A DNA stretch of 64,000 nucleotides from Candidatus Aenigmatarchaeota archaeon (GTDB taxonomy: Archaea > Aenigmatarchaeota > Aenigmatarchaeia > Aenigmatarchaeales > DAIDAN01). The notes under the pieces are model-generated. The model had not been told where the DNA came from and searched no databases. It saw nothing but the letters and a program-made list of their open reading frames with translations. Made by a program: the position numbers and the translations under genes. The stretch spans positions 1,135-65,134 of the forward strand of contig JBAQNA010000022.1 in assembly GCA_049303335.1 (NCBI GenBank), given 5' to 3'. Of the stretch, positions 11,681-55,972 are shown one piece after another (the stretch's first letter is position 1; every line of letters begins with the position of its first letter).

Positions 11681-12754
11681 ATGAGAGACCCTGAATGCGT
11701 TCTCGTGCGGCTCGGAGAGATAGCGCTGAAAAGCCCGCAGGTGCAGAGAAGGATGTTTGGAATGCTTTTGGACAACGTAAAAGCCGCTTTGGATGGGATA
11801 GAATACAAAATGGAGACAAATCCGAACAGAATTTTCATCTATACGAAACAGATTGATGAAGCAATGGAACGGATAAAAAAGATTTTTGGCGTTACATCAG
11901 TATCGCCTTGCTGGACTTGCTTCTCGGGTCTGAACGACATCCGAATGATTGCTTCGGACATGGCTTCCGATGTTTTGAAAATCAGCGAGAAGAATTCTTT
12001 CGCGATTCGCGCGCACCGCGTGGGAAGGCACAAATTTTCTTCAAAAGAGATAGCTGAGGAAGCCGGCGCGGCTGTGAAGCGCGTAACCGGGGCGCGCGTA
12101 GACCTTTCAAACCCCGACAGGGAAATATTCATCGAGGCGCGCTCGCGCAAGACTTATGCATTTGTTGAAAAGATCCCTGCCGTGGGCGGAATGCCAGTCG
12201 GCGTGAGCGGAGGAATAATCTCAATAATTGAAAGTCCGAACGATGTGATAGCATCCTGGCTAATGATGAAGCGCGGCTGCGAAATCATGGCGATAACAGA
12301 TGAAGAAAACATGAAGCTTGCTCAAAAACTGAAAGATTGGGACAAGCAATTGAATATTCTAACTTATGAAAAAAATATTTTGGAAAATTACCTGGCGAAT
12401 ATTCCCAGTGCGAAAAAAACATCTGCACGGAAAATCCTTTTAATAATGCTCGCTTCCCTTGTCGCGGAAAAGGAAGGCGCTCTCGGAATAAGCTCCGGAA
12501 TAGCTTCAGGTGCAAACCTGGGATTTATTGGACAGGTGAATGGAACATCAAGTGTGCCCGTGTACATGCCGCTTCTGCTTTATCCGGAAAAGGAATTGAA
12601 AGAAATTATGAAGATGATAGGGATAAAGGCAAAATCAATAAAAGAAAAACTTCAGGAGATTGATTTGGAAAAAATGAGCGCCGATATTGGAAATACTGCG
12701 GAACAAATGCTTAAATCTCTGAAAGAAGAAAATGTAGAGCATGAGGCAGGATGA
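11681..12754 (+). CDS. ThiI-like tRNA sulfurtransferase (THUMP domain plus adenylation domain with degenerate PP-loop)
   Basis: The N-terminal region looks THUMP-like. It carries VSGGIISIIESPNDVIASWLMMKRGCEI, whereas canonical ThiI has SGGIDSPVAAWLMMKRG. The Asp of SGGIDS is replaced and there is an insertion. Confidence 0.55.
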   Translation: MRDPECVLVRLGEIALKSPQVQRRMFGMLLDNVKAALDGIEYKMETNPNRIFIYTKQIDEAMERIKKIFGVTSVSPCWTCFSGLNDIRMIASDMASDVLKISEKNSFAIRAHRVGRHKFSSKEIAEEAGAAVKRVTGARVDLSNPDREIFIEARSRKTYAFVEKIPAVGGMPVGVSGGIISIIESPNDVIASWLMMKRGCEIMAITDEENMKLAQKLKDWDKQLNILTYEKNILENYLANIPSAKKTSARKILLIMLASLVAEKEGALGISSGIASGANLGFIGQVNGTSSVPVYMPLLLYPEKELKEIMKMIGIKAKSIKEKLQEIDLEKMSADIGNTAEQMLKSLKEENVEHEAG

Positions 12755-13526: not shown

Positions 13527-13554
13527 ATTCTTGACATACAATCATATTATGATG

Positions 13555-13800
13555 CCGTCGTAGCGAAGCTCGGCTCAACGCGCCCGCCTCGAATAAGGTT
13601 TTCTTCTCGAAGAAAACCTTAAGCAAAAGAAGGAATATACAAACATATTATGAGAAAGCGGGTGTGCGCAAGCACACGCAGGTGAGCCCTTTTCTTTTCG
13701 GTGCGAAAGTGAAAAAGAAAAGCGCTCAAGCGGAAAAGAAAAAACAAGAAAAGGGCTCTGCGAATTCGAATTCGGGAAGAAATTCCTGCCGACGGCGCCA
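13555..13800 (+). ncRNA. highly structured intergenic element (candidate ncRNA, identity unknown)
   Basis: Contains a perfect hairpin aaggttttcttc-tcga-gaagaaaacctt, a GNRA hairpin gtgtgc-gcaa-gcacac, a long purine/pyrimidine hairpin gcccttttctttt...aaaagaaaagggc, and a cgaattcgaattcg palindrome. Same hairpin style as the rRNA/tRNA insertions. Confidence 0.3.
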
Positions 13801-16497: not shown

Positions 16498-16571
16498 TGG
16501 TGCGCCGGACGGGATTTGAACCCGTGTCGCGAGCTTGGCAAGCTCGTATCCTGCCACTAGACTACCAGCGC
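16498..16571 (-). tRNA. tRNA-Gly (GCC), CCA encoded
   Basis: The minus strand reads GCGCUGG UA GUCUAGUGGCAGGAUACGAGCUUGCCAAGCUCG...GGGUUCAAAUCCCGUCCGGCGCACCA. The anticodon loop is UUGCCAA and the T-loop is canonical. Confidence 0.85.
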
Positions 16572-18926: not shown

Positions 18927-19421
18927 ATGAAAATAGAAAGGGTTGTTCTTATGCCGTTCTGGTCAAAGCCGCAAAAGAAGGATATCGAGGCAGTGAAGCA
19001 GGCTGTTGTCCCGCAGGAAAGGCCGCAGCCAATGGATATGCCGAAGTTCGACCTCGGGAAACTTCCCGAGAGGCCGCGCTTTGCCCCGCTTTTTATCAAG
19101 ATTGACAGGTATCAGGAAATCCTTAATTCCATTGAAAATCTGAAGTCAATACTGCTCGGCGTGCGCGACTTGCTGAACCTGATGCAGCAGCTTGACAGGA
19201 TAAAAATCGAGTCCGAGACGCTTCTCAACAAGAACATACAGGAAGTCATCCTGATTATTTCCAACATGGACAAGGAATTCATCAGGCCGAAAGGCGTCAG
19301 CGTGGAGGATTCCGTGCAGGATGCGCGCGACAGCGCGGGGTATGAAAAAGTCGGGAACTACATAGGCGACCTGCAAAGGGAGCTTGACAACCTCAAGTCG
19401 CAGCTGCAGGATCTAAGATAA
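18927..19421 (+). CDS. hypothetical coiled-coil protein
   Basis: ORF with a heptad-rich C-terminus; no motif. Confidence 0.35.
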   Translation: MKIERVVLMPFWSKPQKKDIEAVKQAVVPQERPQPMDMPKFDLGKLPERPRFAPLFIKIDRYQEILNSIENLKSILLGVRDLLNLMQQLDRIKIESETLLNKNIQEVILIISNMDKEFIRPKGVSVEDSVQDARDSAGYEKVGNYIGDLQRELDNLKSQLQDLR

Positions 19422-19627
19422 TTTCTTTTTCCGCCTTTCAGTTAGTTTTAAATTCTTCTAAAAGTAAGGTGTTTTTGATTAAACTTTTTTCACCTGGGCA
19501 CGAAAACGTTTTACGTTTTCGGCTCCGCCAAAAATGCGCAGCATTTTTGTGCGTGAGCAACAGCAATATTAGTATGCGAAGCATCAATAATATCAACTGC
19601 TGCTAACTTTCACTAAAAAAAGTTTAC

Positions 19628-19809
19628 GCGGAGATAGCCAATCACCCTTTTTTGCTGGCGCAAAAAAGCGCGACCGGAAAAGGGCGGACAAAGCCAGGTC
19701 TAAGGCGCAAGGCTTAGGAACAGGTTTCCTTTTCGTGCGAAGCTCAGAGACCTGAATTGAGACACCTTGTGGGTTAGTCCCTTCGTCAGTTCAAATCTGA
19801 CTCTCCGCA
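19628..19809 (+). tRNA. tRNA-like gene (about 180 nt) with internal insertions; encoded CCA; identity unresolved
   Basis: The 5' GCGGAGA pairs perfectly with 3' TCTCCGC, followed by A-CCA. A canonical T-arm (cgtcag ttcaaat ctgac) is present and a long variable-arm-like hairpin suggests Leu/Ser type. It contains the hairpin cccttttttgctggcgcaaaaaagcgcg, which is also present in RNase P RNA. Confidence 0.4.
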
Positions 19810-19869
19810 CCAATTGATTTTGCAGGAACATCTTATGCTTTTTATATTCTTTGCGTTGCATTATATTTT

Positions 19870-20143
19870 GCAGAAGATGGCCGCGGTGGTGTAACGGCAT
19901 CGGGTGAAAACCCTGCACGTTAAAGCACAAGAGCCTGTGGAAAACCTTTTCTTTTTAAAAAGAAAAGGTTTATCAAAAGAAAACAAAATAGAAAAAAGGC
20001 TTTATCATGCACAAAAAACTGAAAGTTTTTTGGCACGCCGAAAATCTTTCAGATTTTCGTGCGAAAAAGAAACAGTATTGTTTCGGAATATTACAGAAAG
20101 CTCTTAGACCGAGTTCGAATCTCGGCCGTGGCCCCACTCACAT
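19870..20143 (+). tRNA. intron-containing tRNA-like gene (about 180-nt insertion), CCA encoded; identity unresolved
   Basis: The 5' GCCGCGG pairs with 3' CCGTGGC (one G-U), then C-CCA. T-arm ccgag-ttcgaat-ctcgg; the 5' part resembles an archaeal D-arm. The insert is the purine-rich hairpin type. Its 3' exon lies 14 nt upstream of cmk. Confidence 0.45.
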
Positions 20144-20156
20144 TGAAAGTGTTTTT

Positions 20157-20702
20157 ATGAAAAACGTGATATGCATATCCGGGCAGCCCGCATGCGGCAC
20201 AAGCACGGTCGCAAGGATTATCGCCGAGAAATTGGGATTGGAATATTTTTCTCCGGGGCAGTATTTCAAGAAGCATTCTTCGGGAAAGGAGACGGAGTCC
20301 GCAATAAACGTATGGAAAACGGAGAAAGGCTCAAGCAAGGATTTTCACAACGATATTGACAGGATTCAGTCGGAAATTGCCGAAAAAGGGAATGTTGTCA
20401 TAGACGGGAAGCTTTCAATAAGGATGATAAAGAACGCGGACCTAAAGGTCTGGCTGAAGGCTGACATTGACAAGAGGGCTGGAAGGGTTGTCAAAAGGGA
20501 TTTCATAAGTCTTGAATCGGCGCTCGCAAAGGTGAAAGAGCGAGAGGAATTGGAGAGAGTTAACTGGAAGAATATCTACGGCTTTGACTATTTCGAGCAG
20601 GAGAATGAGGCCGACCTGGTCGTTGACAACACCGAGCTTTCCGCGGAGGAAACCGCGCAAAAGATTCTGGAGTTCTGGGAAAGCAGGACGGAAAGGATTT
20701 AA
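20157..20702 (+). CDS. cmk: archaeal-type cytidylate kinase
   Basis: P-loop ISGQPACGTSTVARIIAEKLG, with the length and pattern of archaeal CMP kinases. Start set at 20157, because the longer ORF-track frame runs through the tRNA exon. Confidence 0.75.
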   Translation: MKNVICISGQPACGTSTVARIIAEKLGLEYFSPGQYFKKHSSGKETESAINVWKTEKGSSKDFHNDIDRIQSEIAEKGNVVIDGKLSIRMIKNADLKVWLKADIDKRAGRVVKRDFISLESALAKVKEREELERVNWKNIYGFDYFEQENEADLVVDNTELSAEETAQKILEFWESRTERI

Positions 20703-21676: not shown

Positions 21677-23848
<2,172 letters not shown>

Positions 23849-27800: not shown

Positions 27801-29190
27801 AAGCAGGACTGACTGGATTCCGCACATCAAGGAATCCAGAGACGAAAGTCTGGGCTAACGATACGCCGAGTGTTCCTGATGGATTTCGGTGACTTCAGAA
27901 AAGCTACCCCGGGGATACGGGTTGGCGCGGAGCAAAGCGGGTCTTCTTGGAAAAAAATATTAATCTTAAATAGATTTATCGCTAGTTGTAAGATGGTGAA
28001 CAATATGTGTAAAGAATGCGGTGTAACTCTAAATGAATATGAAGAAGCATTAAGAACTATTGAAAGAGTAAAACCTAATTTATTGGAGATGAGCGATACT
28101 GCTCGCGCGGCAGATACAAATTTGCAATTATTGCAAAAACAACATATGAGTCATATCACAACAAAAGATAATTTTTCTTTTTTCACATTTTTCCAGGAAG
28201 GCCCGAAGCCCGTACCAACCCGCCAAATAACCGAGTCGTGGCGGGCGAGAGCTCCTAATTCTCACATCTCTAGATGTATTTCACAGAGAGATGGCAATGA
28301 GCAAATCGACTTTTTGAAATGGGTGATTTTCCGGCTGTTTAACGATGAGCGCATATTCGATTTAGCGAGTTAAACGAATTTTGAAGTAACTGATTTATTT
28401 TTAGAAGTTTTCAGATTTAGAAATACAAGAAATAAGGCAGTTATAGAGAAAATGATAGAAATAATTATGTTAGCCGGAATCCTATTTCAAGACGAGAACC
28501 CGCGCGTTGCTACCTCGCTGTCGGCTCCCCCTCTCCTGGTCGTGCAGTAAGCCCTTTTCTGTATCGAGCGTGCAAAAAGCGCTTGCGGAAAAGGTCCTGA
28601 ATGCGACCAAGGGTACAGGTGTTCACTGGTTAAAAGGGGACGTTAGCTGGGTTCAGAACGTCGTGATTCGTTGTGGGTTTTCATTTTACATGCGAAAGCA
28701 ATATTTCCGGTAAGGCGTGAGCATAATGACTTTACCGTCCCAAAATGAGCGGCACTAGCCGCGATGAATTTAGGAGTAGCTTATGAGTGCTGCCAATTTC
28801 CAGGCAACACGCTTTACCTTTTCAAACTTTCCTGGAATTCAGATGCGATTATCCACATCGAACGACATAGACAGTTCGGTCTTTATCTTCCGAGGGTGCA
28901 AAACCTGACCCGAAGGATGCCCAAGTACGAAAGGAACGTGCATCCGTGGCCACTGGTTGACCGGTTATCGTAATGGTAACGCCGGGCAGCTACGCCATAA
29001 TCGTTAACCGCTGAAGGCATGACAGCTGGAGCTAAATGTTCGGCTGTGCCGAACTAAGCGGGAAACGATCGGGAAAAATAGGTGGATGCTGACGGATAGA
29101 TCATCCGTTTAATGGGGCAGTGGTGTACGCACGAAGCCAAAAGCGACGTGTTCAGCCTTCTGCTCCCAATAGCGCAGTTTCAATTCTCTC
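24900..29190 (+). rRNA. 23S rRNA, about 4.3 kb (ends approximate), with multiple insertions
   Basis: Begins GGCGGATGGCTTGGCTC..GATGAAGG..GCGATAAGC. Conserved blocks recognised: GGAAAGACCCCGTGGAGCT, the CCCCGGGGATA region, GCTGGGTTCAGAACGTCGTGA and CGAACTAAGCGGGAAAC. Insertions at about 26140-26290, 27080-27300, 27660-27740 and 27935-28480. Confidence 0.8.
27993..28373 (+). CDS. ORF inside the 23S domain-V insertion (possible degenerate intron-encoded protein)
   Basis: A roughly 550-nt low-GC insert interrupts the 23S right after the conserved CCCCGGGGATA block. Its longest frame begins MVNNMCKECGVTLNEYEEALRT. No LAGLIDADG motif was recognised. Confidence 0.25.
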   Translation: MVNNMCKECGVTLNEYEEALRTIERVKPNLLEMSDTARAADTNLQLLQKQHMSHITTKDNFSFFTFFQEGPKPVPTRQITESWRARAPNSHISRCISQRDGNEQIDFLKWVIFRLFNDERIFDLAS

Positions 29191-29420
29191 AAAATGAGCT
29201 TTTCTTTTTACGCACGAAAACTTCGTTTTCGGCGCCCCTAAAAAGCTTCGCTTTTTATGGGAAAAGAAAAGCTCAAGCAAAAGAAAACATTTTGAAAAAG
29301 CTTGAGCAAAAAGAAAACTCTAAAAACGACCTGACCAATCGCGCGAAAGCGCGAGTCCTTGCCTTTGCCAGTTAATTTTTTCTTTAGAATTTTCTGGGTT
29401 AGCGGTAGCTGTATAAAATA

Positions 29421-48128: not shown

Positions 48129-49358
48129 TCACTCGGCTTTTCCTTCCAAAAGCTCTTCAACCGTCCTTAAAATGATTTCCAAACCGTCCTGATTTTTCAC
48201 TCTCGCAACTTCTTCGCGAGCGCCTTTTCCAAAAGAATATGCTGCGATATATCCCTTCTTCTTTTTTATCCTTCGCATCGCGGTCTCGAAATTATCCACA
48301 ACATTCCTCCCCACGCCTTCGCTTTGCTTGACTTGAATCGGATAGCCTCCTAAAAGCTGCGGCGTAAAGCCGTCTATTCCCATATCCCCGCTTTTCTTGT
48401 CGCTTACCCTGCCTAAAAATTTGCCTGCTACAACCCAGTTCTGGAACTCGAAAGGCGGAAGGCGTTTTACATAATTCAAATCAACATTTCCTCTTATCAG
48501 GTTTGCATCCATATTACATTCTCTCTGCAATCTTTTTTTGATTAGTTTGCAGGCTGTGGGACTTATGTCTATGCCAATCCATTTTCTTCCAAATTTTTGC
48601 GCTGAAATTATTGTAGTTCCGCAGCCGCAGAACGGGTCTAAAACAATATCGCCATCGTTGCTTGCCGCTTTGATAATTCTCTCAAGAAGCGTTAGCGGTT
48701 TTTGAGTAGGGTAGCCTGTTCTCTCTCTTGCCGCAGGATTTATTGCCTGAATGTCCGTCCACCAATCATTAGGCAGAGTCCCTTTGTCCAAATAGTAGCG
48801 ATATTCTTTTCCGAGCTTGATATTTCTCTGATATTGCCTGCCTTTTTCATCGGTAAGAATTGTTTCATGCATTGTGGAAGGGTCTCTTGGCAGAGCAACA
48901 GCATTATAATAAAAATTATATTTTTCCGTTTTGGAATACCAAAAAATAGTGTCATGTTTCTTTGGAAAAAAACCGGTTGCCCTTCCGCCTGTTTCATAAC
49001 ACCAAATTATCTCATTTACAAGATTATTATTGAATATTTTATCCAACAAAATCCGAAGGTGCGCGTTAGCGTGCCAGTCACAGTGCAAAAATAATGAGCC
49101 TGTTTTTTTCAATATTCTATGGCATTCCCTCAAGCGCGGCTCCATCCATGAGATATAATGCTCAACCCCGCCTTTCCATCTGTCCTGAAAAGCGCGAATC
49201 TCTGCGCCATCTTTCCATATCACTTCATATTGTCTATTTGAGAAAAACGGAGGGTCCGCGTAAATCAGGTCTATGCTTTCGTCGGGAAACTTGCTCATAA
49301 TTTCCAGATTATCGCCTTCGTAAATGCTGTTTATTTCCATAAAATCACTGCAAAACAA
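48129..49358 (-). CDS. DNA methyltransferase (beta-class N6A/N4C, DPPF motif) fused to a C-terminal Mrr-like PD-(D/E)xK nuclease domain
   Basis: Motif IV IYADPPFF is followed by motif I DPFCGCGTT (beta-class order). The C-terminus GDMGIDGF...IQVKQSEG fits Mrr_cat D...(D/E)xK. Confidence 0.7.
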   Translation of the reverse strand: MFCSDFMEINSIYEGDNLEIMSKFPDESIDLIYADPPFFSNRQYEVIWKDGAEIRAFQDRWKGGVEHYISWMEPRLRECHRILKKTGSLFLHCDWHANAHLRILLDKIFNNNLVNEIIWCYETGGRATGFFPKKHDTIFWYSKTEKYNFYYNAVALPRDPSTMHETILTDEKGRQYQRNIKLGKEYRYYLDKGTLPNDWWTDIQAINPAARERTGYPTQKPLTLLERIIKAASNDGDIVLDPFCGCGTTIISAQKFGRKWIGIDISPTACKLIKKRLQRECNMDANLIRGNVDLNYVKRLPPFEFQNWVVAGKFLGRVSDKKSGDMGIDGFTPQLLGGYPIQVKQSEGVGRNVVDNFETAMRRIKKKKGYIAAYSFGKGAREEVARVKNQDGLEIILRTVEELLEGKAE

Positions 49359-49466
49359 TTAATAATACCTATTTAATATAGCTGATGCTGGTTTAAATAT
49401 TTTTAAGACTGCCTGCTGAAAATCAGAAACGCAGTTGTTTTTAAGTTTTAAAATCATATTATTCTT

Positions 49467-50807
49467 ATGTTCAAGTTCCAGATTCTCAAGTATTACTCGC
49501 AGCCGTTCGTCCAGCAAAAAATATCCGAGTTCTCGAAAGGGCGCGAAGTTGTCGGCAGGCTGGAGGACGACCGCTATGCGCGGCGCCCCGACGTGATTCT
49601 TTATCCGCGCGACGTTTCCGAAAAGGTGAAGCAGGGCGCGGTAAGCTTCCACTGCTCGGTCGAGCGGTGGCACAACCCCATGCAGCTTTCCTCCGAGATG
49701 CGCGAGCCGGAAATGCGCGAGCTGCGCAGCGGCTGGGATTTCATAATCGACATCGACGCGAAGGCGAAGCTGGAGCACGCGAGGATTGCGGCGCAATCAG
49801 TCATTTCTTTTCTGAAGGATTTTGGAATAACACCAACGATAAAGTTCTCGGGAAGGCGCGGTTTTCATATCGGAGTGTCCGGCGAAGCGTTCCCGAAAAA
49901 AATGGATTTCTTGGAAGTGTCAAAATCCTATCCGGAGGCTCCGCGCGCGATGGCCGGCTTTATCAGGGAAAAGATTTCCGACAGGCTTATGGATTCCTTG
50001 GTAGGAATGGAGGGCGGCGTTGCCGCGCTGATGAAGACCGCGGACGCAAAGACGCTCTCGCCTTACGAGTTCATTGACATAGAAAAGGAATGGGGAAACC
50101 GCCACCTCTTCAGGATGCCGTATTCGCTGCACGAGAAGACCTGGCTCGCTTCGGTGCCGCTTTCGGAAAAACAGCTGAAAACTTTCGAGCCCTCGCAGGC
50201 AAAGCCGGAGAGCATAAAAAAATTCGACTCCGTATTCTTGAAAAACAAGGAAGGTGAAGCATCCGAGCTTCTGATGCAGGCGCTCGAATGGCAGTCAAAA
50301 ACGGTTCAGCCTGCATTGGTTCAGAAAAATGACAGGAAGCATTCCGAAATAAAGGCCGAGATTCCGGAGCAGTTTTTCCCGCCCTGCGTAAAAAATATTC
50401 TGGCGGGAATAGGCGACGGGAGGAAGCGCTCCGTTTTCACGCTGTCCGCGTTCCTGAAATACATGAACTGGACGCCGGAGCACATCGAGAAACGCGTGGA
50501 GGAATGGAACGGAAAAAACCCGTCTTCGATAAGCAACGCGACCATAAGGAGCCAGCTCAAGTGGCACCTGCGCCAGAACAGAAAAATATTCCCCGCGAAC
50601 TGCGACAGCGATTTGTTCTACAAGTCCATAGGCGTGTGCAATCCGGACAACACGTGCCATGGACTGAAGAACCCGATTAATTACGCGTTCCGAATGTATA
50701 GAAAACAGTTCAAGACAGCCGACATCGCGATAAAGAAGGACAGGAAAGTATTAAGGAGAGTCAGAAAGAAAAAAGAAGATAAAACTAATCAAATAACCCA
50801 GTCTTGA
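49467..50807 (+). CDS. fused DNA primase PriS-PriL (small catalytic subunit plus large-subunit Fe-S domain in one polypeptide)
   Basis: AEP motifs WDFIIDIDAK and KFSGRRGFHIG, with RMPYSLHEKT. The C-terminal domain carries the PriL-CTD motif FFPPCVKNIL...RKRSVFTLSAFL and downstream Cys residues CDSD...C...C. Confidence 0.7.
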   Translation: MFKFQILKYYSQPFVQQKISEFSKGREVVGRLEDDRYARRPDVILYPRDVSEKVKQGAVSFHCSVERWHNPMQLSSEMREPEMRELRSGWDFIIDIDAKAKLEHARIAAQSVISFLKDFGITPTIKFSGRRGFHIGVSGEAFPKKMDFLEVSKSYPEAPRAMAGFIREKISDRLMDSLVGMEGGVAALMKTADAKTLSPYEFIDIEKEWGNRHLFRMPYSLHEKTWLASVPLSEKQLKTFEPSQAKPESIKKFDSVFLKNKEGEASELLMQALEWQSKTVQPALVQKNDRKHSEIKAEIPEQFFPPCVKNILAGIGDGRKRSVFTLSAFLKYMNWTPEHIEKRVEEWNGKNPSSISNATIRSQLKWHLRQNRKIFPANCDSDLFYKSIGVCNPDNTCHGLKNPINYAFRMYRKQFKTADIAIKKDRKVLRRVRKKKEDKTNQITQS

Positions 50808-50976
50808 AATCCTGTTTTAATTTTTCAAAATCGCTTATGCCATACTTTCTTGCTAAGACTTTTTCATATGCTTTTATTGTTTCCTTAGAATAGCCTTTGT
50901 CCAAGCCTTCAAAATATTCTCTTGCAATGTCCCCCAACCCGCCAACGATGCCCATTTTCTTTTCTTCCCCTCGCAA
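50785..50976 (-). CDS. hypothetical small protein
   Basis: 63 aa; overlaps the primase 3' end. Confidence 0.2.
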   Translation of the reverse strand: MRGEEKKMGIVGGLGDIAREYFEGLDKGYSKETIKAYEKVLARKYGISDFEKLKQDFKTGLFD

Positions 50977-51024
50977 CCTTTTTCTTGAAAGATAATTTGC
51001 AAAGTACTAATGCGCCGGCACGCT

Positions 51025-51105
51025 TATAAACTTATCGCTTTCCGCGGCTTTGCTCCTAAACTCGGTTCTGCTCCTAATGTCGGAGTTTTGCTCCTAAAGT
51101 CGTTA
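51025..51105. repeat. triple tandem approximately 18-bp repeat (ttGCTCCTAAAnTCGG) preceded by the 16-mer CGCTTTCCGCGGCTTT; left boundary of the RM/IS island
   Basis: Reads ctttgctcctaaactcgg / ttctgctcctaatgtcgg / agttttgctcctaaagtcg. The 16-mer cgctttccgcggcttt recurs at about 57015. Confidence 0.5.
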
Positions 51106-51396
51106 GAGTTTTAATTTCGCTGGGTCAATACCAGCTTCCCTCATTCTTTTCAGTATTGCTTCTCTATCTATCGGCTTACCTTCTTTAAGCCGCTTTCTTA
51201 TTTCCTCTTTTGTTTTGTGGCAATTAGGGCAATCTTCCAGAACTTCATAGACTTCTTTTGATGTGTGATAGCCGCGAACCGCACCCATTGTTGCGGTGCG
51301 TGTTGTTTTCGTTGATATGACAGATGGCTTATGCCTAACCTTGATTTTAGCCTTCTCACAAAATGGGCAATCCATTAACAGTTCTTGTTCTAACAT
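51103..51396 (-). CDS. zinc-ribbon protein (CPFC ... CPNC)
   Basis: 97 aa; two CxxC pairs; basic residues. It is the first gene inside the island. Confidence 0.4.
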   Translation of the reverse strand: MLEQELLMDCPFCEKAKIKVRHKPSVISTKTTRTATMGAVRGYHTSKEVYEVLEDCPNCHKTKEEIRKRLKEGKPIDREAILKRMREAGIDPAKLKL

Positions 51397-51443
51397 AATT
51401 TTCTAATCAATTTTAAAGAATATAAGATTAATGAGCATGGCTT

Positions 51444-52385
51444 TTAGATATTTGAACTATAAGATAAGGATTTTATATAATCTTCCATAAATTTCCAGTC
51501 AGGGTCTCCTTTTTTATCTATAGGTAATTCTATTTCATCAAAATCTAATCTTTGCAGTCTTACTTGTCTACCAAAATTATATTTATATTGCAGTTCTTTT
51601 AGAATTGTTGCTAAAAATAAGCAAATATACTTATTGAGAGAAAGACTTTTTGGAATTAAAGTATGAACATTATCATCACTAAAATATTCATAATTATGAT
51701 AGAATACATTAAAAAACATATCAATTGTTAATTTATCTCTGAAAATCTTTTTACTGTCTTTAAATTCATCATAAGAAATATAATCAACAACCCCGTTATT
51801 TTCAGACGTTGCAGTAATTAGTGGGATTTTACCTTCTATTCTTTCTTCTTTTACCAATCTTTCACCTTTTTTAATGTTAAATAAATCAACAATCTTAAAA
51901 TTTTTCCAAGTTTTAACATTTAATTCAATTTTCTTAGAGATAATCGGTTCTTTTTTCAATTCATTGATTTTTAATGAATATATCCAAGAAGGAATTTTTT
52001 CTTTAGATGGAATTTCTAAATCTTTTAGTGTTTTATTAGCTTGTCTTCCATAAGAATATTTCCATGCATTTTGTTTTAAACACATACAATAATACCATAA
52101 TTCGCGTTCATTTAATTTTATTTTTGGTGTTAAGTATACTATATGAAACCCGCTATAATACGGTTCTTTTTGTAAAAAACTCGCCATCACAGAACCACCA
52201 CAAGAAACCGAAATAGTATTTGCAGGATTTGGCGTAATCCCTTCAATTAATTTGACTTTGCCAACAACACCATTATTTTTTTCAGTTCGGGCTACAAATG
52301 GAATACCATTAGAATCTTCTTCCATATTGGAAAATTCTAAATTAACACCATATTTTAAATTAAAATAGTCTTTTACTTTGACCAT
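51444..52385 (-). CDS. restriction-modification specificity subunit (HsdS/BcgIB-like, two short TRDs)
   Basis: Two repeated TRD-like halves (YFNLKYGVNLEF...IPFVARTEKNNGVVGKV and WKNFKIVDLFNIKKGERL...IPLITATSENNGVVDYI). 1-nt spacing to the upstream gene. Low GC. Confidence 0.65.
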   Translation of the reverse strand: MVKVKDYFNLKYGVNLEFSNMEEDSNGIPFVARTEKNNGVVGKVKLIEGITPNPANTISVSCGGSVMASFLQKEPYYSGFHIVYLTPKIKLNERELWYYCMCLKQNAWKYSYGRQANKTLKDLEIPSKEKIPSWIYSLKINELKKEPIISKKIELNVKTWKNFKIVDLFNIKKGERLVKEERIEGKIPLITATSENNGVVDYISYDEFKDSKKIFRDKLTIDMFFNVFYHNYEYFSDDNVHTLIPKSLSLNKYICLFLATILKELQYKYNFGRQVRLQRLDFDEIELPIDKKGDPDWKFMEDYIKSLSYSSNI

Positions 52386-54404
52386 TTAATCACCCGTATT
52401 TAAAAATTTAAAAGCAACAAAATCTTTTAATGTTTTCTCAAAATCTTTTTCATTTAATTTAGAATAATCTGTTTCCATATATGCTTCAACACACCATTCA
52501 TCATTGGCGGTTACATATTTCTTAACACTAAACCCTTCAATTTCTTCTTTATTTCTATAATTTTCTAACCAATATTTTTTTATTTCATTCCATTTATTTT
52601 TATAATCATCTCTTCCAGATTTTCTTTTTATAAATCCGTCATCTTTCCAATAACCAAAATAAGTCTTATAATTTGTTGGATGTTTTTCTTTTGCCTTAAA
52701 TACCATAATACAAGTATTAACCCCAACATTAGAGTTATGAAACAACTCTGTTGGCATAGAAAAAACGGCTTCCAGAGTATTTTCTCTTAACAATTTTTCT
52801 TTAAGTTCCAAACCGGTACCGCTTTGAGCTAAAGCACAGCTCATAGGAACAATAGCAATACATAAAGAACCCTTTTCAAGTAAATATAAATTATTTAATA
52901 CAAATTCTAACTCTTCTGGGTCAGTTTTAGTTGATTTGTATGGAGGATTAAGAAAGCCCGTATTAGGTTTAAATGTTTTTATTTTGTTAATTGTTTTTTC
53001 ATTGAAACATGAACCTTTAATCAAGTTACTTCTCCCATCTCCGTGAATAAACATATTAGAACATACCAAAGCAAAAATATCATGCTGAAACTCAACACCA
53101 ATTATTTGTTTATGTTTTATAATTTCTTCTTTCTTTGTATCTCCTGCGGCGTCCTCAATCATTTTTCTCATAGCACTTATCAGGAAACCCCCAGTTCCAC
53201 AGCAAGTATCTAAAACCACACTATCTTTATTTATATTGGCTATCTCCGAAAATAATTCGGTGATGTGTGGAGGAGTTAAAACAATTCCTAAACCCTTATC
53301 ATTATTAGCATATCTTAAAAATTCTATATAAAATTGTCCAAGAGTATCAAAATATTGATATGTTTTATTAAAATTATTTATCCTCAAATCTACTTCGGTT
53401 ATAATATCTCTTAATTCATTTTCTTCTTTTGAAAGTATTGTATGAGTTTTTATGAAACTGTATGTAGTTATAATATCAACTATATGTTCGTTTTGAACGT
53501 TTGTTAATTTATTTTTTATAGTATTGACAAGGCTTTCAGATAATTCTTTTGGTTTCTGAAATTTATAAGAATTACAAAAAGCTTTATCTTGTAATGCTAT
53601 AAGTATTCCGCTAATTAACAAACTCCTATTAGCTTCTGGAACTTTTATGGCGTGAAGTTTATCATTTAATATTTTTGAATATCTTAACAGTTCTTGAAAA
53701 TCTTGATTAAACTTCTTCTCATCTGATTTGTAGCCATTTATATAATCATACAAGGAAAAAAGTTTATCTTCTTTAAATATAGTATTTGCTTCTTTAACTC
53801 CTTTCAGTTGTAAAAAATGAGAAATTCTTATATTAGATTTTTCTTCTCCACTAATTGCTATAGACAAAACATCATACTCTTTAGAAAGAAAAGAAGAATA
53901 TAATAAAGCTCCATCAACAGCATAATCTTTATATTTATCTCCTTCTTTAGATTTATGATATTTTGTATTAGCTTTACATTCAACAACTATTATAAAATCT
54001 GGAATTTCTTTAAATTGAATTATAAATTCTGGGTAACCCTTCCCATTTCCACTTTTTGAAGCATTTTTTAATAATTTATCAATCTTTATATTTTTAGTGG
54101 CTTGTTCTTCAAATATTATGCTGTTAAACATCCCATCATTCTTAAAATGAGTTCTTACAAAGTCTTCAGTAATTCTTTCGTTTCTCATTTTTTCCCCCTC
54201 TTTAGATACTCTTCTATTGAGATTTGTATGACTTTCGACCTGTCTGTTGGGGCTGGTTTTGTTTGAGAACAATATTCGTCTAATTCTTTTAGAACTTGTT
54301 TGCTTATAGAAATAGTTGCCCTTGCCTTTACAACTTCTTTTTTCATGTAATAATTGAGAAGATTGTGACTTATAATCTTTAGTATGATTAGTATTACTTC
54401 TCAT
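52386..54404 (-). CDS. Type IIB/IIG restriction-modification enzyme A subunit (N-terminal PD-(D/E)xK nuclease plus gamma-class N6-adenine methyltransferase, BcgIA-like)
   Basis: Motif IV FLNPPYKS (NPPY) and motif I LDTCCGTGGFLISA. The N-terminus has PDFIIVVECK, a nuclease (E)xK-like pattern. Together with the 313-aa S subunit this matches BcgI A/B architecture. Confidence 0.7.
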   Translation of the reverse strand: MRSNTNHTKDYKSQSSQLLHEKRSCKGKGNYFYKQTSSKRIRRILFSNKTSPNRQVESHTNLNRRVSKEGEKMRNERITEDFVRTHFKNDGMFNSIIFEEQATKNIKIDKLLKNASKSGNGKGYPEFIIQFKEIPDFIIVVECKANTKYHKSKEGDKYKDYAVDGALLYSSFLSKEYDVLSIAISGEEKSNIRISHFLQLKGVKEANTIFKEDKLFSLYDYINGYKSDEKKFNQDFQELLRYSKILNDKLHAIKVPEANRSLLISGILIALQDKAFCNSYKFQKPKELSESLVNTIKNKLTNVQNEHIVDIITTYSFIKTHTILSKEENELRDIITEVDLRINNFNKTYQYFDTLGQFYIEFLRYANNDKGLGIVLTPPHITELFSEIANINKDSVVLDTCCGTGGFLISAMRKMIEDAAGDTKKEEIIKHKQIIGVEFQHDIFALVCSNMFIHGDGRSNLIKGSCFNEKTINKIKTFKPNTGFLNPPYKSTKTDPEELEFVLNNLYLLEKGSLCIAIVPMSCALAQSGTGLELKEKLLRENTLEAVFSMPTELFHNSNVGVNTCIMVFKAKEKHPTNYKTYFGYWKDDGFIKRKSGRDDYKNKWNEIKKYWLENYRNKEEIEGFSVKKYVTANDEWCVEAYMETDYSKLNEKDFEKTLKDFVAFKFLNTGD

Positions 54405-54494
54405 ACTAATACATATTGTATCATACTATTAATACTAATCATACTATATATTTTCGCAGAAATTCTTATCTTAAAAACTTTTCAGAAATACAAC

Positions 54495-54644
54495 TCACGC
54501 TTTTTTCTTCATCTCCTCGTCTATCTTTTTCTGGACGAAGTGGGAGAGGTTGATGTAGTGGTCTTCTATATATTTGGCTTGATGAGGGAATAATGTTATG
54601 TTCTTTTTGACCGCCTTTTCTTCCTCTTTTTTCTTCTTTGTCAT
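54495..54644 (-). CDS. small basic protein (possible RHH/regulator) adjacent to the transposase
   Basis: MTKKKKEEEKAVKKNITLFPHQAKYIEDHYINLSHFVQKKIDEEMKKKA. The upstream extension in the ORF track is a Tyr/Thr low-complexity artefact of TA-rich repeats. Confidence 0.25.
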   Translation of the reverse strand: MTKKKKEEEKAVKKNITLFPHQAKYIEDHYINLSHFVQKKIDEEMKKKA

Positions 54645-54760
54645 ATTATACGTATAATAGGTATGAGTATATATACTTGTGTATGTATACATATAATACG
54701 TATTATGTGTATAATAGAAATACAGAAACATAACAATCAAAAAACAAAAGAGGCGATTTA

Positions 54761-55972
54761 ATGCAAAACCAAAATTCAGCTAACATGACAAGAGAGCAGA
54801 AAGGATTAGAGATAGCAAAAACTTCCCAAATAACAAAGAATGAAAAGGGATATTGGAAAGTGCCAAGCCAGTCGGGGCATGGCTACTATCTTGTGAATCT
54901 TAACAAGCATGAGCCAGAATGTTCTTGCCCAGACTGCGAATTAAGAAAGCTGAAATGCAAGCACATTTTCGCGGTAGAATTTTATCTGAAAAGGGAAATT
55001 GACAGCACGGGCAACATGACAGAAACAAAGGCAGTAAAGATAACTTATTCGCAGAATTGGGAAGCATACAACAAAGCACAAACAAGCGAGTTAAGGCTCT
55101 TTGATGTTCTGCTTAAAGACTTGGTTAATGATGTGGAAGAGCCAAAACAGCACATGGGAAGAAAGAGATTAGACATTAAGGATACCATGTTTTGCGCAAT
55201 ACAAAAAGTCTATTCCCAGCTTTCAAGCAGAAGGGCATACTCGCTTTATGCAAACGCAAAAGAAAAGGAAAAGATAAAGAACGCTCCGAATTTCAACGCA
55301 ATAAACAAGTTCCTTAACCGCGAGGATATAACGCCGATACTACACAATTTGCTGACATTAACGGCTTTGCCTCTAAAAAGCGTGGAAACGACTTTTGCCC
55401 CAGACAGTTCTGGTTTCAGAACCACACAATTTAACGAATACTGCAAAGAAAAGCATGGCACGGACAAATATCATATATGGGTAAAGGCGCATATCCTTGT
55501 CGGGACTAAAACAAATATCGTGGCGAGTGCAAGAATAACCGAAGGGGAAAGTGCTGATTGTCCGCAGTTCGCACCTATGGTTAATGAAGCCCATGACAAC
55601 GGCTTTGAGATAAAAGAGATAACAGCGGACAAGGCTTATTCAAGCCGTGATAACTACTCTTTGGCTCAAAGCATAGGAGCAACCGCCTTTATCCCTTTTA
55701 AATCAAACGCTACGGGAAAATCAAGAGGCTCTATGATTTGGGGGCAGATGTATCACTACTTCATGTATAGGCATGATGAGTTTATGCAACACTACCACCA
55801 GCGAAGTAATGTAGAAAGTGCCTTCAACATGATTAAGGCGAAATTCGGCGACAAGTTAAGAAGCAAAAATTATGTGGCACAACAAAATGAACTTTTATGC
55901 AAACTGATAGCCCACAATATCGTTGTGCTGATACATGAGATACACGAACTCGGGATAAAGCCCGAGTTCTGA
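54761..55972 (+). mobile_element. IS4/IS5-like DDE transposase with N-terminal SWIM zinc finger (IS element ORF)
   Basis: SWIM CSCPDCELRKLKCKHIFAV. DDE region ...ADKAYSSRDN... and the C-terminal YHQRSNVESAFNMIKAKFG (conserved E) are typical of DDE_Tnp_1. TA-rich imperfect repeats lie upstream at 54400-54760. Confidence 0.7.

Follow-up and report, generated by a model that had tools for sequence, protein, structure and literature searches.

Can a locus in which tRNA finders call nothing hold two complete transfer RNA (tRNA) genes, and what are the sequences that interrupt them? The question is raised by a stretch of 64,000 nucleotides (nt) from a Candidatus Aenigmatarchaeota archaeon (hereafter the window, meaning the whole stretch; the source DNA has 44% G+C). 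The initial annotation of this stretch had placed two tandem tRNA-like genes, with large inserts and encoded CCA ends, directly upstream of the cytidylate kinase gene cmk. We identified them as tRNA-Leu(UAG) (19628-19812, forward strand) and tRNA-His(GUG) (19879-20136, forward strand), each interrupted by two introns. The best explanation is that these are two functional, independently transcribed multi-intron genes of a member of the Aenigmatarchaeota, in the DPANN superphylum, and we give this reading as a whole, splicing included, a probability of about 0.85.

Exons and introns of the tandem genes

On the raw window, ARAGORN and Rfam at its gathering score (tRNA model RF00005, 29 bits) called a single tRNA, tRNA-Gly at 16498-16571. 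Both programs missed the tRNA-Leu and tRNA-His loci, and ARAGORN did so with the intron options -i, -i0,300, -io and -if. The sensitive mode of Rfam gave a partial tRNA alignment at 19684-19809 (30.2 bits), which skips 48 nt in the anticodon loop and begins at a second, imperfect GCGGACA within an insert in the tRNA-Leu D-loop. At the tRNA-His locus even this mode gave no alignment. As a control for chance, we searched the 64-kb window, on both strands, for any intact T-arm accompanied by a 7-nt strand that pairs with a 7-mer at most 600 nt upstream. This returned tRNA-Leu, tRNA-His and tRNA-Gly and nothing else (zero false positives), and CCA follows all three.

The tRNA-Leu gene spans 185 nt including the CCA and yields a cloverleaf after splicing in silico. 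Exon 1 (19628-19641, GCGGAGATAGCCAA) holds tRNA positions 1-14, i.e. the 5' strand of the acceptor, U8 and A9, the 5' strand of the D-stem, A13 and A14. A 51-nt intron in the D-loop, at position 14/15 (19642-19692), separates it from exon 2 (19693-19718; positions 15-37), which carries the remainder of the D-loop, the 3' strand of the D-stem, the 5' strand of the anticodon stem and the anticodon UAG (19714-19716). After a 45-nt intron at position 37/38 (19719-19763), exon 3 (19764-19812) runs from position 38 to A73 and the encoded CCA (19810-19812), all on the forward strand. The acceptor pairs at 7/7 positions (GCGGAGA at 19628 with TCTCCGC at 19802), the T-arm reads GTCAG-TTCAAAT-CTGAC and the discriminator is A at 19809. 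We recognised class II tRNA-Leu by a Leu anticodon, a long variable arm, A73 and a D-stem of 3 base pairs (bp) with a long D-loop. The gene has UAG, the long variable arm TGGGTTAGTCCCTTC (in exon 3), A73 and a D arm that reads GCC-AAGCCAGGTCTAA-GGC.

The tRNA-His gene, also on the forward strand, spans 258 nt including G-1 and CCA and likewise gives a cloverleaf when spliced. Its exon 1 (19879-19898, GGCCGCGGTGGTGTAACGGC), the same in all relatives, holds the encoded G-1 (19879) and positions 1-20. A 25-nt intron in the D-loop, at position 20/21 (19899-19923), precedes exon 2 (19924-19940; positions 21-37, anticodon GTG at 19937-19939), and a 158-nt intron of GC 0.28 at position 37/38 (19941-20098) precedes exon 3 (20099-20136; position 38 to C73 and CCA at 20134-20136). 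The acceptor pairs at 7/7 positions with one G-U (GCCGCGG at 19880 with CCGTGGC at 20126), the T-arm is CCGAG-TTCGAAT-CTCGG and the discriminator is C at 20133. A GUG anticodon and an encoded G-1 that pairs with C73 identify the gene as tRNA-His.

The tandem arrangement and the acceptor pairing, T-arm and encoded CCA of the initial annotation thus hold at both loci, and its suspicion that the first is of Leu/Ser type with a long variable arm was right, in favour of Leu. It located the genes correctly, at spans (about 180 and 270 nt) that we correct to 185 and 258 nt. It allowed one insert per gene where there are two, the extra one being a D-loop intron in each case: at the second locus the large insert exists, at 158 nt instead of about 180, and the 25-nt D-loop insert had escaped notice. 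The anticodons, deemed impossible to assign by eye, are both readable.

We then examined the intron boundaries for the motif called bulge-helix-bulge (BHB), in which two 3-nt bulges are separated by a 4-bp central helix (H) and the cuts fall two bases 3' of each H strand; the outer helix (h) and inner helix (h') were scored as well. An unconstrained scan of the two loci and the ribosomal RNA (rRNA) operon was too noisy (71 matches, versus 41-64 in shuffled sequence), and matches were counted only where they coincided with independently defined junctions. Three of the four introns have a canonical BHB, with H paired at 4/4 positions, in every allele. With H strands in square brackets and cuts as slashes, these are [CTTA]GG/A...[TGAG]AC/A at Leu 37/38 (h = 7), [AACG]GC/A...[CGTT]AA/A at His 20/21 (h = 4 bp, which is the D-stem) and [CTGT]GG/A...[ACAG]AA/A at His 37/38 (h = 6, h' = 2). 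Position 20/21 is a documented site of non-canonical introns in archaeal tRNAs (PMC4090602). The intron strand of H varies between alleles with its pairs preserved (TGAG versus TAAG in tRNA-Leu, ACAG versus ATAG). The predicted spliced junctions are GCCAA^GCCAGG and CTTAGG^ACCTTG for tRNA-Leu, and AACGGC^AGCAC and CTGTGG^AGCTC for tRNA-His. Splicing in silico at these sites reconstitutes the anticodon arms, and ARAGORN calls both products, one an 89-nt tRNA-Leu(tag) whose variable arm is long, the other a 74-nt tRNA-His(gtg).

Further evidence comes from relatives. We compared about 12 related lineages (given below as L numbers), reached through homologs of cmk, homologs of the open reading frame (ORF) upstream of the tRNA pair, and exact-match scans of public genomes and metagenomes with the 26-nt exon 2 of tRNA-Leu. 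Candidatus Aenigmatarchaeota is among the contigs that match this 26-mer, and Aenigmatarchaeota are among the best cmk homologs. The exons of both tRNAs are 100% identical throughout, whereas the introns differ in length and sequence; across the same lineages cmk is 77-91% and the upstream ORF 68-98% identical. Gene order varies, and tRNA-Leu is inverted in several relatives. The D-loop intron of tRNA-Leu is present in the window, L004, L018 and L021 and absent from six lineages (L002/L003/L010, L007, L009, L012, L013 and L016/L017), in which exon 1 is joined directly to exon 2. These six read GCGGAGATAGCCAAGCCAGG, i.e. exactly the spliced junction that we predict (GCCAA^GCCAGG). L013 lacks this intron although its 37/38 intron is identical to that of the window. 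Natural alleles without the D-loop intron are matched by the Rfam tRNA model from exon 1 onwards, with scores of 44.7, 38.4 and 35.3 bits. The covariance model thus finds the tRNA once this insert is naturally absent. For the other three introns (Leu 37/38, His 20/21 and His 37/38), no intron-less allele was found among these lineages.

In relatives, introns also occupy positions that are uninterrupted in the window, with up to three per gene. A variable-arm intron of 47-120 nt interrupts tRNA-Leu in L001, L002, L004, L009, L010, L013, L014 and L021, and tRNA-His has a T-arm intron (86-104 nt) in L004 and L016/17 and a T-loop intron in L015. Every allele has a His 20/21 intron, which belongs to one of two unrelated sequence types (25-27 or 35-38 nt) with a common 3' strand of H; variation in its inner hairpin is accompanied by compensatory changes. 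The His 37/38 intron ranges from 67 to 158 nt.

Separate transcription of the two genes is suggested by an A/T-rich block just 5' of tRNA-His (19838-19878, forward strand), a putative archaeal TATA-type promoter with TTTATATT at 19842-19849. The block GCTTTTTATATTCTTTGCGTTGCATTATATTTTGCAGAAGATG is near-identical in L001, L002, L012 and L013, and several relatives have TTTATATT at a distance of about 30-37 nt upstream of tRNA-His. This conservation holds even where tRNA-Leu is inverted, which suggests that tRNA-His has a promoter of its own. About 70 nt upstream of tRNA-Leu (19560-19627; AACAGCAATATTAGTATGCGAAGCATCAATAATATCAACTGCTGC...AAAAAGTTTAC) are highly conserved in L002 as well (reverse complement of about 2557-2625). 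This stretch travels with tRNA-Leu on inversion; in L004 and L013 it is missing, and the region upstream of the gene is short and different. It may represent a promoter, a leader or another small RNA.

The D-loop insert of tRNA-Leu and rival explanations

The fourth intron requires closer attention. In the window and L004 alone, its junction is ambiguous over three registers, each with at most 2/4 H pairs. The L021 allele ends in T instead of A, and only the cut GCCAA/T...(A/T)/GCCAGG retains the invariant A14; therefore the intron lies at 14/15 (19642-19692). With this placement the inner helix h' (C-G, A-T, C-G, C-G, C-G, T-A...) starts at cut+2 and ends at cut-6 in 4/4 alleles, which is the canonical spacing. 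We read the insert as a relaxed BHB intron, a class for which precedents exist: broad-specificity EndAs are known to accept the relaxed motifs HBh' and BHL as substrates, and EndAs of DPANN that have an L3 loop are associated with increased disruption of tRNA genes (PMC5829648).

Other ways of excising the insert were considered and rejected. No consistent motif yielding a valid tRNA was obtained from a canonical H in any of the three precise registers, from imprecise excision (+2, +4 or +9 nt), from nested or two-step excision, or from letting GGAC, at the tail of the intron, pair with GTCT (exon 2) or GTTT (leader). Pairing of a hairpin-loop TGGC with GCCA of exon 1 is lost in L004. The tail GCGGACAAAGCCA resembles exon 1, and a target-site duplication might be its source. 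We rejected this origin because the likeness is weak (p ~0.006), stems mostly from a shared family core and decays in L021.

In the process that we propose, the precursors would fold so that the boundary pair of each intron is placed in a BHB motif, EndA would cut at two sites, each two bases beyond the 3' end of one strand of the 4-bp central helix, an RtcB-type ligase would join the exons, and RNase P with 3' trimming would complete the tRNA ends. The Leu 14/15 intron would need a broad-specificity EndA of the type reported for DPANN, because it has two G-C pairs in its central helix and no outer helix.

Several observations weigh against this account. The H positions of the Leu D-loop insert are AxA, G-C, CxA and C-G (2/4 pairs), the outer helix is absent, and H is invariant in the four alleles and hence gains no support from covariation. 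Pair counts over these alleles give one compensatory pair, in the inner hairpin, which is not significant (141 of 500 shuffles reach the observed value). Since the exons are invariant in all relatives, the cloverleaf gets no covariation support from them either. For the spliced tRNA-His, whose natural alleles all keep both introns, the support comes from ARAGORN, from the identity elements and from the BHBs. Pfam scans of 50 ORFs of the window revealed no EndA or RtcB (nor a homing endonuclease), and splicing, with the enzymes that would perform it, is something we infer from sequence.

The weak motif leaves room for a reading in which the Leu D-loop insert is removed by a route other than EndA and BHB, or is retained as an extra arm of the mature tRNA. 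Besides the half-paired H and the missing outer helix, it can invoke a related member in a hairpin loop of 23S (28549-28598) and a piece of about 13 nt in the T-arm of a candidate tRNA-Ser (see below), both without a convincing BHB. Retention would, however, put 51 nt between A14 and position 15, and an insert at this place would break conserved tertiary contacts. As for an unconventional removal, both cut sites keep the canonical spacing to h' in 4/4 alleles, the homologous variable-arm element has a full BHB, the intron-less alleles are precise deletions of this very segment, and relaxed motifs are established EndA substrates (PMC5829648). We consider this reading improbable, if the best placed of the alternatives.

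Alternatively, one or both genes could be pseudogenes recently disrupted by insertions of mobile elements. Several inserts do belong to families of repeats with further members in intergenic DNA, the Leu D-loop insert has no canonical BHB, and inserts are polymorphic among relatives. Yet the exons are identical in about 12 lineages despite diverged intergenic DNA, introns and neighbouring proteins, BHB pairing is preserved through substitutions, and the D-loop insert has been kept with intact exons in four lineages, where the upstream ORF is 68-84% identical to that of the window. Moreover, neither the window nor any locus of the relatives showed a second Leu(UAG) or His gene. A pseudogene is accordingly a still less probable explanation than a different fate of the insert.

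Least probable of all is a tRNA-Leu that starts at 19684, with GCGGACA as the 5' strand of its acceptor, 19628-19683 as a leader removed by RNase P and no D-loop intron: this would require no splicing at a site without a canonical BHB, Rfam aligns 19684-19809 slightly over the gathering score, ARAGORN accepts the sequence after removal of the 37/38 intron, and the tail resembles exon 1 at 6/8 positions (p ~0.006 in register), but such a tRNA would have a C6xC67 mismatch, A8 for U8 and a D-loop that is short and has no A14; the version with exon 1 scores 14.5 bits higher (44.7 bits, natural alleles); exon 1 is invariant in four intron alleles and all intron-less alleles, while the tail varies (GTGGACA in L004 and L018, ATGGACA in L021, with 1:72 and 6:67 mismatched); and the likeness between tail and exon 1 is mostly due to a family core common to the variable-arm intron.

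Intron families in tRNA and rRNA genes

If the two genes are spliced as proposed, where do their introns come from? The sequences point to a few families of BHB introns without ORFs, common to tRNA and rRNA genes and polymorphic between relatives. The tRNA introns are 25-158 nt long, contain no conserved ORF and have length differences that are not multiples of three. Group I introns had no Rfam match at the gathering threshold or in a sensitive scan of 19400-20300. Just 3' of the tRNA pair, Rfam places an archaeal small subunit (SSU) rRNA gene (21677-23664) and an archaeal large subunit (LSU) rRNA gene. Families of direct repeats connect the inserts of these genes with those of the tRNAs. The initial annotation had assigned the large insert of the second gene to a purine-rich hairpin family, and had missed that such inserts belong to intron families common to the rRNA genes.

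Significantly similar introns are found at different positions and in different host genes. The Leu D-loop intron of the window is identical at 38/51 columns to the variable-arm intron of L009 (z = 7.9) and is related to an insertion in 23S at 28549 (z = 5.5). L004 holds copies of one family in both the D-loop and the variable arm, and the variable-arm copies have a full BHB. In its 5' module, the His 37/38 intron is homologous to insertions that the window's 16S and 23S genes carry; for example, the His 37/38 intron of L004 and the window's 16S insertion at 22431-22499 are identical at 45/49 positions of this module (score 76; null 15 +/- 2.5). That 69-nt insertion has a perfect BHB, [GTGC]CA/A...[GCAC]AT/G, and its removal restores GTGCCAGCCGCCGCGGTAA. 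The BHB of a further 16S insertion, of 93 nt (23400-23492), has an outer helix of 8 bp.

In one subfamily of the variable-arm introns, AAGCC(C/T)TTTT (tRNA-Leu of L001, L002, L010 and L013), the best BHB, [TGGG]TA/A...[TCCA]AA/T, predicts a variable loop GGGTATTAGTCCC, 2 nt longer than the GGGTTAGTCCC of intron-less genes such as that of the window. Either the cuts are shifted in this subfamily or the mature tRNAs differ by 2 nt.

The rRNA genes of the window have other insertions. The Rfam SSU alignment includes insertions of 279, 77 and 54 nt, the longest near 21939-22218 with approximate boundaries; at the same sites, relatives have 146 and 189 nt (window 279) and 61 and 63 nt (window 77). 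The insertion at 22431-22499 splits the site of the universal 515F primer (GTGCCA^GCCGCCGCGGTAA). The 23S gene (24916 to about 29150) seems to be interrupted by a large insertion from near 27950, because conserved 23S sequence (gctgggttcagaacgtcgtga and the sarcin-ricin-like gtacgaaaggaac) appears again at about 28470-29150, 3' of the end of the Rfam LSU match at 27968. A candidate BHB lies there at 27948-28200 (h' = 7), and an ORF of 164 amino acids (aa) within the insertion (27879-28373) has zero Pfam matches. Further family elements occur in 23S at about 26142, 27680, 28549 and 29195-29330.

The His 37/38 intron owes its 158 nt largely to a nested element of 58 nt (20007-20064, forward strand), which is a clean insertion when compared with the intron of L009 and folds as two adjacent hairpins with the layout GCAC-GAAAAC..GTTTTC-GGCNCC-GAAAAT..ATTTTC-GTGCG. 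Other copies are found in the window at about 19495-19553 (intergenic, absent in L002) and 29209-29262 (in a 23S insertion), and outside it in the His intron of L002 and the variable-arm intron of L004. The element behaves as a clean presence/absence insertion both within introns and in intergenic DNA, like a miniature mobile element. The euryarchaeal tRNA-Trp intron encodes a C/D box guide RNA. The His intron is similar in being unusually long and placed at 37/38; it differs in that the additional length is the nested repeat. A search for a C/D box small RNA in its 158 nt found no C box (RUGAUGA) and a single, internal CUGA. These results and the missing conserved ORF led us to reject the intron as such an RNA or as a coding sequence.

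These families would have spread to several tRNA positions and to the 16S and 23S genes, with gains and losses between close relatives. Extending this to the phylum is tentative, and we hold it at somewhat less than even odds: Aenigmatarchaeota may carry actively mobile BHB intron families without ORFs that travel among sites in tRNA genes (anticodon loop, D-loop, variable arm and T-arm) and conserved sites in the 16S and 23S genes, tolerate a degenerate H at some sites, such as 14/15 of tRNA-Leu, and host the 58-nt twin-hairpin element, which would also insert into intergenic DNA.

Gene neighbourhood, known systems and significance

The cmk gene, an archaeal cytidylate kinase of 181 aa (20157-20702, forward strand; 181-aa homologs have PF13189, Cytidylate_kin2), does follow the tRNA pair directly, as initially annotated, with its start at 20157; the ATG at 20007 lies inside the His intron. 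A dCTP deaminase gene comes after cmk, and a 164-aa ORF precedes the tRNA pair. Among the genes at 11681-12754 and 48129-55972 are one like ThiI, with THUMP and ThiI domains (synthesis of s4U8 in tRNA), others for type I restriction-modification, and one that joins a DNA methylase to an Mrr-like domain. A DDE transposase is encoded at 54761-55972.

A candidate tRNA-Ser(CGA) at 13554-13800 (forward strand) is also missed by ARAGORN and Rfam. It has the acceptor GCCGTCG/CGACGGC, a long variable arm, an encoded CCA and a 63-nt intron at 37/38 (13594-13656) with the BHB [CTCG]AA/T...[TGAG]AA/A. Its T-arm holds a family element of about 82 nt ([GCAG]GT/G...[CTGC]GA/A) and, before the 3' strand of the T-stem, an extra TCGGGAAGAAATT of about 13 nt without a BHB, so that the T-arm is not cleanly parsed. 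The 3' CCA is encoded in all four tRNAs of the window (Gly at 16498-16571, Leu, His and the candidate Ser at 13798-13800) and in relatives. Of the 50 ORFs that we scanned, none was seen to encode a CCA-adding enzyme.

How do these genes compare with known systems? Multi-intron archaeal tRNA genes and intron transposition are already known, and both genes fit that kind. In Thermoproteales, tRNA genes with several introns and transposition of tRNA introns have been described (Sugahara et al. 2008; Fujishima et al. 2010; PMC4033280, PMC4090602). The likeness lies in similar introns that recur across tRNA positions and genes, and that come and go among close relatives. Unlike that crenarchaeal group, the host here belongs to the Aenigmatarchaeota, the families also occupy 16S and 23S, the central helix of the 14/15 intron is degenerate, and the twin-hairpin element nested in introns is also intergenic. 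The pre-tRNA-Glu(UUC) of Methanopyrus kandleri has a canonical intron and a relaxed HBh' intron in the D-loop, and is cleaved in vitro (PMC5829648). Both genes of the window share its combination of a 37/38 and a D-loop intron, the relaxed D-loop intron being that of tRNA-Leu; they differ from it in the fully canonical D-loop intron of tRNA-His and in being known from their sequences only. Disrupted tRNA genes and broad-specificity EndAs (ARMAN-2 epsilon2; L3-loop alpha4) have been reported in DPANN (PMC3239211, PMC5829648). That is the same superphylum, with multiple or non-canonical introns that escape standard finders and reports of incomplete tRNA sets. Short hairpin-type BHB introns are known from the 16S genes of Thermoproteales (PMC4496867) and BHB introns from DPANN rRNA genes (PMC6125680), which the insertion at 22431-22499 resembles as an ORF-less BHB intron within a conserved rRNA site. 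What sets it apart from known rRNA introns is its near-identity, in the 5' module, to the tRNA-His anticodon-loop intron of a relative. In the literature searchable here we found no description of these tRNA genes and intron families, nor an earlier one of the link between tRNA and rRNA introns.

Three aspects go beyond the routine, namely the relaxed 14/15 motif, the families shared between tRNA and rRNA genes with their presence/absence alleles, and the nested twin-hairpin element. For annotation, the consequence is that, of the window's four tRNA genes, standard procedures overlook at least three. Hence genomes of this phylum appear to lack tRNAs for Leu(UAG), His and probably Ser(CGA). It is also important to highlight that the 16S genes here are interrupted at universal primer sites. 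The Aenigmatarchaeota join the lineages with multi-intron tRNAs, and provide clear natural evidence of intron gain and loss: the same exons with and without an intron, one element at two positions of a single tRNA, and a family that spans tRNA and rRNA genes. The relaxed 14/15 motif offers a concrete substrate for studying the specificity of DPANN splicing endonucleases. If the intron families are indeed mobile, they would constitute, with many alleles available in public metagenomes, a natural system for the mechanism of BHB intron transposition and for the limits of relaxed EndA recognition.

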